From sequence record NC_100371.1: DNA of 64,000 nt; one strand, 5' to 3'. The notes beneath the pieces were generated by a model, which saw only the letters and a program-made list of their open reading frames with translations, was not told the origin of the DNA and did no database searches. Both the position numbers and the translations under genes were made by a program. Positions 42,600 to 46,918 of the stretch are shown one piece after another (positions within the stretch are counted from its first letter, which is position 1; every line of letters starts with the position of its first letter). Origin of the DNA: a phage.

Positions 42600-42649
42600 A
42601 GTATCTCCGATTACTCTATTCTACCACATCTAATTAAGATTGGCAACAC

Positions 42650-43741
42650 TTAGATAAAACGCTTGAACATAGAAGGTGATGAGATTGATGGAATCACACA
42701 AGGCAGCGCTACCTCCTCTTTCTCCAGGAAATTAATCGCAGAAGCTACACAGTCGGCCCAGTCGTCTTTTCTGTTAAATGTTGATCTTTCCCCGTTGAAC
42801 TTTTCAAGTTCAGTCAGAAATGCTTCCAGAGTGTCAGGATGGAAACTGGATTTTACAATCCTCACCATTCCTTGTTGGGCAAGATTGGCAAAAGGTGAGA
42901 ACCTTGTCAGTTTAGATTTGTTGGAAGGCATTGGATCTTCTTCAACCCTGAACCCTTCGGCGAGCAAGGATCTGGACGAGGTTAAGAATTCACTCTTACC
43001 TGCCTGACCGGGGTCCACAGAAAATACGATTATGCAATCATCTCCATCAAACTGCGCCTGTTTCCTGATGATCACATCTCGTTCCCCAGCCTTTTTACAG
43101 AACTTACCTTCCAGACCTGTGGAATACCTACCGTCATCCACGTTCTCAGGACAATAATCTCCGGACAGGTAATAAAAGCCGTCGCTATCTTTACTTACCT
43201 TAACACTGGCGGTAAAGTCAGGAAATTTATTACCGGAAGTTCTCTCGGTTCCTGCTTTATCCCATGCCCTGCAAGATACTGATCCAAGAGGTACTCTATC
43301 GGCATCACGAAGGAAAGATCTTTGGAAATAGTTTGCACCCTCAGGTTTGGCAAACCAGTTGCCATGAAGAAGCTGGGCTTTTTCAAGCTCTGGCAGACCT
43401 TCAAGGAAAGCAAGGTATTCTGGGTTGTCTCTCAAGCAGACAGGGTTATCGAAAATTGTTGCTCCTATAAACGAGAATGACAACGGTCTTGGCTTGATCT
43501 CCACACCCAGTCCGTTAACCGTGGTGTATTTCTCTATTAACTCTTCTTTAGAGTCTCCCCAAATAAATTCACCGTCGCGTCGGATAAAATATCTTTTCTT
43601 ACCACATTTCTCCGGATCTGGATACCCTTCATCGTCCAACCACCACCTGACCAGTTTGGCAAGCATGTGTTCTGAGTCGGGGTTACAACTGATAACCATT
43701 CTTGATGGATACTTTGACTGAGATCGCAGACGAGACATCAA
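42650..43741 (-). CDS. terL: terminase large subunit, exon 2 (C-terminal part; 5' boundary approximate)
   Basis: Begins near SRMVISCNPD (motif III-like) and continues through a nuclease-type region; reading frame is open upstream into the intron, exact 3' splice site not determined. Confidence 0.65.
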   Translation of the reverse strand: MMSRLRSQSKYPSRMVISCNPDSEHMLAKLVRWWLDDEGYPDPEKCGKKRYFIRRDGEFIWGDSKEELIEKYTTVNGLGVEIKPRPLSFSFIGATIFDNPVCLRDNPEYLAFLEGLPELEKAQLLHGNWFAKPEGANYFQRSFLRDADRVPLGSVSCRAWDKAGTERTSGNKFPDFTASVKVSKDSDGFYYLSGDYCPENVDDGRYSTGLEGKFCKKAGERDVIIRKQAQFDGDDCIIVFSVDPGQAGKSEFLTSSRSLLAEGFRVEEDPMPSNKSKLTRFSPFANLAQQGMVRIVKSSFHPDTLEAFLTELEKFNGERSTFNRKDDWADCVASAINFLEKEEVALPCVIPSISSPSMFKRFI

Positions 43742-44654
43742 ATAGTCTATCTGCTCCCATTCGAATTGCGTCGTTTATGTTCGGGCAAGGTCGCTAGTCT
43801 TGCCCCGCCATTTTCAGGCAGCTGCATGTCTCCATGCAGACCAGACTATATCTTATGAATGTGCAAATACTCTGCTGCTCTAAGAATGGTTTCCTCATCC
43901 TCTTGGAAGAAACCTAAAGCTCTGTTGCATTTATCACAAAGCAACCCTCTTACAGCACCAGTTTTATGGTCATGATCAACACAAAAGAAATCTCTGTACC
44001 CTTGCGTCCTATACTCATCAAGAGATATTCTACAAATGGCACACTTATGATCTTGATCTGAGAGTAAGCGATAGTATTCATCTTTTGTTATGTGAAATTT
44101 CTTCTCAATCTGATAAAACTTTTCACACATCTTACACCTGTTCGTAACCAGATACACTTTACCATAGTCACGTTTTGTGTAAAAACTATCAGCAAGCATA
44201 CTTTCATGACAAGATTTACATTCAAAAAGCTCACCTTTCTTCAGTAAGTCTTGAATAAAAGATGCTGCATCATCTCTCTTAACCATATTTTTGTTTCTAC
44301 GAGATCCATTCTTCCTGTAGTACATATAGCATTCCTTGCATGTACCGGAGTATCCATCCTTGCTCTTAGATGATAAAAAGAAATCATCAAGAGGTAGAAC
44401 TCTTTGGCAATCCATACATTTTTTAGTATTACACATTCACCCTCCCGTTTCGAATCGCTTGATTCTACGTCTTTCGACTAGTCGTTGAACGTTCATCCTT
44501 TCGGATGCTTCGCTGCGGATTATCTAAATTAACACACTGTTACCATACCTTCGATCTCTCTTCGAAGCCTCTATCATGTTACCATGACAGGTTGGTGGTG
44601 TCAATAATAAAGATTTCCCCGCAATTAGGGAGGTTTTACGAGAGCTACAAATTA
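43742..44654 (-). mobile_element. group I intron (td-like) in terL, carrying HNH homing endonuclease ORF
   Basis: Minus strand begins UAAUUUGU... right after exon codon GGU (in-frame UAA); contains P-like AAUUGCGGGGAAA, Q-like AAUCCGCAGC, R-like GUUCAACGACUAGUC and S-like AAGAUAUAGUCU in canonical order. Confidence 0.7.
43846..44436 (-). CDS. HNH homing endonuclease (intron-encoded, 196 aa)
   Basis: Own GGGAGGG RBS; several CxxC zinc-finger pairs and HNH/EndoVII-type motif CVDHDHKTGAVRGLLCDKCNRALG; stop codon UAG lies inside the S element. Confidence 0.7.
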   Translation of the reverse strand: MCNTKKCMDCQRVLPLDDFFLSSKSKDGYSGTCKECYMYYRKNGSRRNKNMVKRDDAASFIQDLLKKGELFECKSCHESMLADSFYTKRDYGKVYLVTNRCKMCEKFYQIEKKFHITKDEYYRLLSDQDHKCAICRISLDEYRTQGYRDFFCVDHDHKTGAVRGLLCDKCNRALGFFQEDEETILRAAEYLHIHKI

Positions 44655-45080
44655 ACCCTCATCGAAGCAAACCATGGTGTACTCAAGTCCTTGATGGTTA
44701 AGCTTATCTTGGACATACTCCATGTGGCAGTATTTTACAACAGCTCCTTTTTTGCTCCTGTCCCACTTGCCAGTGCTCGGATCAAACCGTGGAAAAATAA
44801 ACTTATGATCCTTCTCTCTGAACTTTGGTTTAATGTTTTCAGGCAGATCACTGTAAATAGCTACTGCTTTAGGCCATAGCCCACCCTCACCTTCCAACTG
44901 TGGAGTTGTTCTTCGGAACATAACCACAGAGCTGTGTGGGTCATCAATAATTTTAAGCGGCATCAACTGCAGGAGGAACGACTTACCTGACCCAGCCGCA
45001 CCACCAATGACAAGAATGTCTGCATCGTTTTCCAGGATCATCTTCTGCTTTTCAGAACACGGTCCGTAAATCTTAGACAT
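44652..45080 (-). CDS. terL: terminase large subunit, exon 1 (N-terminal ATPase part)
   Basis: Walker A ILVIGGAAGSGKSF and Walker B MVCFDEG; ORF ends at TAA directly after DEG, which I read as the first intron codon. Confidence 0.7.
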   Translation of the reverse strand: MSKIYGPCSEKQKMILENDADILVIGGAAGSGKSFLLQLMPLKIIDDPHSSVVMFRRTTPQLEGEGGLWPKAVAIYSDLPENIKPKFREKDHKFIFPRFDPSTGKWDRSKKGAVVKYCHMEYVQDKLNHQGLEYTMVCFDEG

Positions 45081-45367
45081 TAACCTCTCTCCTTTGGAAA
45101 CAGTGTTCTAATATAGTCTTGCAAAATGATCAATTTAGCCCTATCATTACTGCAAGACAGGTTATTATCCCTCATAATGCCAGAATTCACCGCATCAGGC
45201 GCACCTTTCTTTAAAGGTATAGCTTTAGCAGGAGGCTTCATAGCACCCTCGGGAGGTTTAACAATCAACCTTCCTACATCCGGAGGGTCAATCTTGTATT
45301 CTCTCTCAACGCTGGTTGCACACCCACACAATAACAAGCACAAAACAACCAGTGCAGTAACTCTCAT
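45080..45367 (-). CDS. o-spanin-like outer-membrane lipoprotein (95 aa)
   Basis: Signal peptide with Cys-containing lipobox-like LLLCGC; Pro-rich (PPDVGRLIVKPPEGAMKPPAKAIP); overlaps i-spanin stop by 4 nt. Confidence 0.5.
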   Translation of the reverse strand: MRVTALVVLCLLLCGCATSVEREYKIDPPDVGRLIVKPPEGAMKPPAKAIPLKKGAPDAVNSGIMRDNNLSCSNDRAKLIILQDYIRTLFPKERG

Positions 45368-46424: not shown

Positions 46425-46430
46425 AAAAGG

Positions 46431-46527
46431 TGCTAGGTGATGGAATCGAACCATCTATGTATTCAACGACTACCTCGTCTATTTTCAGGATTAAAAATCC
46501 TCGCCCTTGCCAAAGGGCTTACCTAGC
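46431..46527 (-). tRNA. atypical tRNA-like gene (97 nt; Lys-like UUUUUAA loop; identity unresolved)
   Basis: Perfect 7-bp acceptor GCUAGGU/ACCUAGC, D-arm GCCC-UUUGGCAA-GGGC, T-arm GAUGG-UUCGAUU-CCAUC, but 46 nt between D- and T-arms; no encoded CCA. Confidence 0.4.
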
Positions 46528-46830: not shown

Positions 46831-46918
46831 TGGTGGTGAGTGATGGAGTCGAACCACCCGAATCGCAATGATAACAGATTTACAGTCTGCCCCGCTACCC
46901 CTACGGAATTAACTCACC
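46831..46918 (-). tRNA. tRNA-Tyr (anticodon GUA), class II
   Basis: Manual fold: acceptor GGUGAGU/ACUCACC, anticodon arm GCAGA-CUGUAAA-UCUGU, long variable arm, T-loop UUCGACU, CCA. Confidence 0.7.

Follow-up and report, generated by a model that had tools for sequence, protein, structure and literature searches.

A td-like group I intron with a putative homing endonuclease gene that interrupts a Vequintavirus gene for the terminase large subunit

We analyzed a 64,000-nucleotide (nt) stretch of phage DNA (NC_100371.1; hereafter the window, numbered from its first letter) in which terL, the gene for the terminase large subunit, is interrupted on the minus strand. The source phage is a Vequintavirus, an rV5-like E. 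coli myovirus; a megablast search with 42600-45100 returned 122 phage records, nearly all of them Vequintavirus, at ~96% identity. We consider it highly probable that the interruption is a mobile td-like group I intron, which carries in its P8 element an open reading frame (ORF) for a homing endonuclease of the DHHRN/Endo VII type and which splices to give an mRNA for a TerL protein of 515 amino acids (aa). The intron is not novel: it was described earlier in this phage lineage, and public genome records annotate it. The intron and the parts of terL that it separates, together with the hairpin at its 5' splice site, are located as follows.

43772..44654, minus strand: group I intron, 883 nt, td-like, in a probable IA2-type layout with candidate P7.1/P7.2 hairpins and no P2 (match to Rfam model RF00028)
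44655..45080, minus strand: terL exon 1, 142 codons, the last being GGT for Gly142 (ORF list; Pfam Terminase_6N)
42650..43771, minus strand: terL exon 2, 373 codons plus stop, starting TQFEWEQIDYLMSRLRS, with motif ISCNPD and an RNaseH-like nuclease domain
44640..44660, minus strand: P1 hairpin, exon GAGGGU plus intron UA (44660-44653) paired with guide UAGCUCUC (44647-44640) (Rfam alignment)

Interruption of terL and its splice junctions

The upstream part of terL lies in an ORF from 45080 to 44652, which contains the Walker A motif GGAAGSGKS and ends ...MVCFDEG (Walker B, CFDE) followed by TAA, in agreement with an initial annotation of the window, in which the ATPase ORF had been described as stopping at a TAA directly after DEG. 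Exon 1 covers positions 2-104 of the Pfam profile Terminase_6N. On the same strand the TerL frame reopens from 43774 to 42650, and this downstream piece, whose first codons from 43771 are ACG CAA TTC (TQF), matches positions 110-211 of Terminase_6N and also Terminase_6C. The intron is inserted directly after the Gly142 codon and before that of Thr143, three nt (one codon, G) past the Walker B Asp-Glu codons, and the ATPase domain is split half and half between the exons. With the exons joined, TerL gave a single Terminase_6N match over residues 25-294 of 72.6 bits, as against 26 and 32 bits for the separate halves.

Uninterrupted terL genes in three close relatives, EmilHeitz, 12A_SA_NWU, and A112b, read ...GAT GAG GGC ACG CAG TTC... 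(DEGTQF) across this site, which in EmilHeitz is GATGAGGGCACGCAGTTCGAATGG. When 44654-43772 was removed and the conceptually spliced TerL was compared with its homologs, as had been suggested with the initial annotation, the resulting 515-aa protein was identical to the uninterrupted EmilHeitz TerL at 515 of 515 residues. Because the two proteins are the same, the junctions are fixed at 44655|44654 and 43772|43771. The initial annotation had TerL resuming about 910 bp downstream; an open frame does resume, but the intron is 883 nt long and exon 2 starts at 43771. The 3' end proposed there, 43742, beside the first TTG (43741), had to be abandoned, since it lies 30 nt inside exon 2, the intron-less alleles and the terminal G of the intron showing that the boundary is 43772|43771. 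A junction after G43769 was rejected as well: it would remove Thr143, yet this residue is present in all uninterrupted homologs.

The intron begins UAAUUUGU, with the in-frame UAA at the 5' splice site that had been noticed initially, and ends ...AACAUAAACG, its terminal G being G43772. For comparison, the intron was taken from eleven other phages, which gave 10 distinct core sequences including that of the window, and the core was aligned without P8. The wobble pair U44655.G44645 belongs to an 8-bp P1 that did not vary among the 10 copies; intron-less alleles have C in place of the U, and T at -1 is the base required by P1. As this is the canonical wobble, it places the 5' splice site at 44655|44654. 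A P10 of 7 bp with one bulged C can join intron bases 2-8 (44653-44647, AAUUUGU) to exon-2 bases 43771-43764, ACG(C)AAUU; it is an alternative pairing for bases 44653-44647 and is fully paired through the exon variants of other phages. Pair counts were 100% for both P1 and P10 and 17-57% when the strands were slid.

The ribozyme core and the intron-encoded endonuclease

RF00028 matched 44664-43822 from model position 1 to 253, that is, end to end, with 47.9 bits and E = 1.1e-10 in a 1.6-kb region (E = 4.2e-9 for the same match when the whole window was scanned). The elements of the core occur in this alignment in the order P1, P3, P4 ('P', UGCGGG), the P5 extension, P4' ('Q', CCGCAG), P6/P6a, 'R' (GUUCAACGACUA), two small hairpins between P7 and P3', P3', P8, 'S' (AAGAUAUAGUCU), and P9. 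No P2 hairpin was present in the intron by the RF00028 alignment or by folding, and the joiner between P1 and P3 is six nt. The two small hairpins fold at 44478-44469 (with a GAAA loop) and 44465-44452, the position of P7.1/P7.2; they are invariant among the copies and so are without covariation support. Further structural elements were placed as follows.

44522..44614, minus strand: P5 with a large three-hairpin extension, P5a/b/c-like (RNAfold of the sub-domain)
43844..43848, minus strand: P7 3' strand UAGUC in the S element, pairing with GACUA 44483-44479 and containing the stop codon of the endonuclease ORF
43783..43842, minus strand: P9 (GNRA loop GAGA), a small hairpin, and P9.1 (RNAfold), in the td-like 3' stretch

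A structure drawn by hand, with 91 pairs and the P3/P7 pseudoknot among them, was 99.7% paired in the 10 distinct copies and 34-38% paired when the partners were slid by 1-3 columns. Three pairs showed compensatory double changes, all in the P5 extension: two in P5a of phage HMD-6 (U-A to C-G, A-U to G-C) and one in P5b (C-G to U-A, by way of a U.G intermediate); several single-sided substitutions were G.U-compatible. The P8 stem is GAAUGUG/CACAUUC in ORF-containing alleles and AAGCGA/UCGCUU in ORF-less ones, different sequences that are both complementary, and this replacement is independent support for the predicted intron structure. The claim of the initial annotation that a group I intron interrupts terL, with P-, Q-, R-, and S-like elements in canonical order on the minus strand, is thus borne out by the covariance-model matches, by P1, P10, and the terminal G, and by in-frame excision. 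A permissive (E-value) Rfam scan detected no further introns in the window.

The endonuclease ORF and the sequences associated with its expression are listed next.

43846..44436, minus strand: homing endonuclease ORF, 196 aa plus stop (Pfam PF02945, PHROG, and PDB matches)
44440..44446, minus strand: GGGAGGG, Shine-Dalgarno sequence of the endonuclease ORF (Rfam alignment and coordinates)
44576..44604, minus strand: candidate sigma-70-like promoter, TTGACA-17-TAACAT with upstream TG (consensus scan, 10/12)

The 196-aa protein matched Pfam Endonuclease_7 (PF02945, E = 2.1e-21), PHROG 'endonuclease VII' families (E values down to 2.4e-33), and, among solved structures in the PDB, the restriction enzyme Hpy99I (1.6e-5) and T4 Endo VII (7e-4). 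CxxC motifs occur four times in its N-terminal part, at residues 7, 33, 73, and 101, and the C-terminal Endo VII motif is complete, with C132xxC135, D154-H155-D156-H157, R163, and C167xxC170-N171. By these motifs it belongs to the His-Me-finger (HNH-like) superfamily, in the DHHRN branch that Fang et al. (2018) defined with F-CphI, and is a putative homing endonuclease. The zinc fingers and HNH motif in an ORF with its own GGGAGGG ribosome-binding site, as well as the UAG stop inside the S element, had all been proposed at the outset, and each could be located: the CxxC motifs, the Endo VII motif (HNH superfamily), GGGAGGG, and TAG 43848-43846 within the P7 3' strand. Proteins at least 95% identical were found in only 29 records in the phage collection, all of them in this terL intron. 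The next relatives were below 60% identity (~27-46% among the matches listed), and the annotated distant relatives among those matches came from T7-like and actinophage genomes and were mostly labelled 'endonuclease VII'.

Signals of the ORF overlap the ribozyme at both ends. Bases 44446-44441 of GGGAGGG form the P3 3' strand, paired with CCUCCC 44633-44628; the P8 5' strand (44438-44432) includes the AUG (44436-44434); and the last sense codons, HIH, form the P8 3' strand (43863-43857). The folded ribozyme would therefore be expected to hide the start of endonuclease translation, and a translating ribosome would block P3, P8, and P7. Because the Shine-Dalgarno sequence is the P3 3' strand and the AUG is in P8, translation of the endonuclease and folding of the ribozyme would be mutually exclusive on any one RNA.

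The candidate promoter lies within the P5 extension, ~140 nt upstream of the endonuclease AUG, and the record of phage Gotham (MT682716) annotates a predicted promoter at about the same place. Its -35 hexamer was intact in 6 of 6 ORF-containing copies and in one of the six ORF-less copies examined, the other five being altered by pairing-compatible changes; relatedness of the intron copies could explain this pattern. The promoter/terminator scan was not enriched relative to shuffled sequences (9 promoter-like sites as against 6.2 +/- 2.1 expected), and since such sites are no commoner than in shuffles, the intron-internal promoter is only a lead. Transcription from it might yield a truncated, P3-less RNA that serves as the endonuclease mRNA, making a mutually exclusive switch; separately, the need for GTP in splicing might tie TerL and packaging to the energy state of the cell, a sensitivity that has been proposed for introns of the Bastillevirinae. 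Both ideas are speculative, and we think them rather unlikely.

Proposed mechanism, alternatives, and known introns

From the features above we infer the following course of splicing and homing. terL would be transcribed as a precursor on which ribosomes stop at the UAA formed by the first three intron bases. The RNA would fold into the P1-P9 core, and exogenous guanosine would attack on the 3' side of U44655, which P1 holds as a U.G wobble. Exon 1, once released, would in turn attack behind G43772, the terminal G, while P10 keeps exon 2 in line; the product would be an mRNA encoding the 515-aa TerL. In mixed infections the endonuclease presumably cuts intron-less terL (GAGGGC|ACGCAG), and repair of the cut gene would copy the intron in.

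Several observations weigh against this interpretation. The score of 47.9 bits is just under the Rfam gathering cut-off for RF00028 of 50 bits, and the intron is seen with E-value thresholds only: a default scan of the window at gathering thresholds listed tRNAs and not the intron. The covariance-model check proposed with the initial annotation thus gave a match by E value, but one below the gathering score. The low score arises because a 585-nt segment with most of the endonuclease ORF is inserted in P8; HMD-6 has this intron without the ORF (318 nt), and there it scored 81.4 bits (E = 4.4e-20), over the cut-off. Mean column identity among the copies was 99%, and P3, P4, P6, and P7 were invariant and without evidence of covariation; with copies this similar, the core helices are uninformative on that point. 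The intron of Gotham, 882 nt, lacks one A in the A-run after endonuclease codon 4, which truncates the ORF; the ORF as annotated in that record begins only at Met8, an internal codon, and so lacks the first Cys (locus about 1419-1440). Either the homing endonuclease gene has begun to decay in this phage or the missing base is a sequencing error in the homopolymer. No RNA-level study of the Vequintavirus terL intron was found in the literature, and the splicing precedent in phage CB7, described below, concerns an intron at a different site with a different HNH gene.

The better surviving of two alternatives is that a free-standing endonuclease gene split terL, the two polypeptides being translated separately and assembling afterwards without splicing. 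Aeromonas phage Aeh1 nrdA/mobE is reportedly a case of a gene split in this way without RNA splicing. Many GenBank records annotate two 'terminase large subunit' coding sequences (CDSs) and an 'endonuclease VII' gene, and one HNH-containing insertion in the CB7 paper did not splice (PMC7344957). Exon 2 also offers in-frame TTG and ATG codons at 43741 and 43738, but no well-spaced Shine-Dalgarno sequence lies upstream of them, and the 30 nt before the TTG encode the conserved TQFEWEQIDY, which would be lost from a separate second polypeptide. Moreover, the ORF is flanked by a complete ribozyme core, which is still there in ORF-less alleles (81 bits), and the ends of the insert coincide with the U.G pair of P1 and a terminal G, its removal giving a TerL 100% identical to uninterrupted homologs. 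Because the ribozyme persists without the ORF, the boundaries obey splice-site rules, and TQFEWEQIDY would otherwise be lost, we consider a split gene very unlikely. A decayed, splicing-defective intron remnant in a non-functional terL allele (a defective genome assembly or a sequencing artefact) would fit the sub-threshold Rfam score and the absence of P2 but is more improbable still, because identical or near-identical intron-plus-ORF alleles occur in 29 independent records, including the plaque-forming BASEL phages DrSchubert and HeinrichReichert, cultured isolates whose growth implies normal DNA packaging, the substitutions among copies keep the pairing, the endonuclease ORF is intact, and the low score is accounted for by the P8 insertion.

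A mobile group I intron also agrees with what has been described for related phages. Kropinski et al. (2013), in a section headed 'Introns in terminase', described rV5 terL in three segments, one with a homing endonuclease, and thanked D. Shub for defining the intron location (PMC3606486); terL introns of Lactobacillus phage LL-H are cited in the same article. The RefSeq record of rV5 (NC_011041) joins three terL exons. In the BASEL records terL is a join of two exons, which in DrSchubert flank a 'putative homing endonuclease' and in JohannBauhin an ORF-less intron; comparative annotation was used to set the intron boundaries (PMC8594841). Fang et al. (2018) listed an Endo VII-motif sequence of 'Escherichia phage 2 JES-2013' as intron-encoded (PMC6083498). 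That sequence is very probably the ortholog of the window endonuclease, because the JES2013 record (NC_022323) carries the same intron and ORF, at 96% identity.

Intron 1 of rV5/V5 has the same DEG|TQF site, a ribozyme ~98-99% identical outside P8, and terL annotated as a join; it differs in being a 319-nt ORF-less form with a short P8 hairpin, and rV5 also has a second intron. DrSchubert (MZ501060) and JES2013 have the same 883-nt intron and 196-aa ORF (with a few amino-acid differences in DrSchubert), and only point differences separate them from the window, in which the first exon-2 codon is ACG rather than ACA, as in intron-less alleles.

The T4 td intron belongs to subgroup IA2, encodes I-TevI, and has a UAA at the 5' splice site after GGGU and P7.1/P7.2 between P7 and P3'. 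The window intron shares with it the UAA after GGGU, the S element AAGAUAUAGUCU, a phage host, and an intron-encoded endonuclease, and its two small hairpins between P7 and P3' are candidates for P7.1/P7.2. It differs in having the ORF in P8 rather than in P6, an Endo VII-motif rather than a GIY-YIG enzyme, a different host gene, no P2, and a large P5 extension. Intron positions 802-880 (P7', P9, and P9.1) matched the 3' end of T4 td by blastn (79 nt, 82.3%, E = 1e-11), and the comparison suggests that ribozyme segments may be shared modularly among unrelated phages. The td-like 3' stretch is the region of window positions 43772-43853, aligned for example with M12742 1700-1777. Shorter core matches were seen to introns of phiKZ-like Pseudomonas, Vibrio, and Staphylococcus Twort-like phages.

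Splicing of terL introns has been demonstrated elsewhere, in vitro and in vivo for the Bastillevirinae (PMC11878797) and by reverse transcription-PCR and Sanger sequencing for Certrevirus CB7, of the same subfamily as the window phage (PMC7344957). The CB7 intron (KY514263, 385-1345) is likewise of group I (RF00028, 35 bits), lies in the part of the orthologous terL that encodes Walker B, and carries an HNH-type gene. It is inserted after VD, GAU|UGACUAACC..., that is, 6 nt upstream (VD|EGTQF as against DEG|TQF), and has an unrelated intron sequence and a different endonuclease, of 166 aa. Identity of the two introns was rejected on these grounds. The presence of two unrelated introns at Walker B codons of orthologous terL genes suggests that this is a hot spot for homing endonucleases.

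The protein shares the C-terminal motif CxxC...DHDH...R...CxxC-N with the F-CphI/DHHRN family, and the sequence of phage 2 JES-2013, its apparent ortholog, is in the endonuclease clade of the paper that describes that family (PMC6083498). F-CphI itself differs in being free-standing beside an intron, whereas the window protein is intron-internal, has two additional pairs of CxxC motifs at its N terminus, and is an endonuclease by prediction.

Alleles, genome setting, and significance

Among records with terL at least 95% identical, the intron was present in 52 of ~120; 29 had the ORF and 23, including rV5, did not, and the rest were intron-less. The window intron was 100% identical to that of the unannotated OX460980, 'Vequintavirinae sp. 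EcoIv14a_Aya'. At the junction, intron-containing alleles read GGT|ACACAA (HdK5 having ACACAG) and intron-less alleles GGC|ACGCAG, all synonymous; the window is a mosaic, GGT|ACGCAA. This flanking pattern fits co-conversion of exon sequence during homing with variable tract lengths, and the presence/absence polymorphism, together with the synonymous flanking differences, lends indirect support to the predicted homing.

A second terL intron, of 979 nt with a different HNH gene, lies downstream in rV5, HdK5, A142, and phiWec193, and its 3' part in HdK5 matched RF00028 with 34.9 bits. In the window this site is empty (43454|43453 in exon 2, minus strand, ...GGAGCAACAATT|TTCGATAACCCT...). As it is occupied in relatives, terL of the Vequintavirus lineage has at least two independent optional introns. 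Eighteen MG0656xx records ('UNVERIFIED: Campylobacter phage' A142, A141, C15, and others) are placed in Vequintavirus and were ~96% identical in this region, and the host given in their labels seems unreliable.

As in rV5, the minus strand carries, in order, a tRNA cluster, the genes for i-spanin and o-spanin, terL, and the portal gene. Between tRNA-Ser and tRNA-Thr we noted a tRNA-like sequence of 99 nt (46429-46527, minus strand) whose variable arm is long and whose anticodon loop is irregular. ARAGORN called this sequence either 'tRNA-???', its anticodon having 4 bases, or tRNA-Gln(ttg) containing an 'intron' of 5 nt, and it scored 37.5 bits with the Rfam tRNA model; it is unannotated at the matching place in rV5. 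Rfam also placed a tRNA at 46834-46918 (39 bits) that ARAGORN missed.

Because each exon holds half of the ATPase domain and Terminase_6N forms a single stretch only after splicing, it is a reasonable inference that DNA packaging may need splicing of terL RNA. The scientific weight of the finding is small, the element being a textbook case of a mobile group I intron within a conserved gene of a phage. Automated pipelines, however, split terL into two 'terminase' CDSs and a 'recombination endonuclease VII', and the exact junctions allow the correct join to be made. With three allelic states (no intron, an ORF-less intron, and an intron with the ORF) and a second optional site, terL of Vequintavirus is a convenient natural system, which could be used to study the cycle of homing endonuclease gain and loss and the co-conversion of flanking exon sequence.

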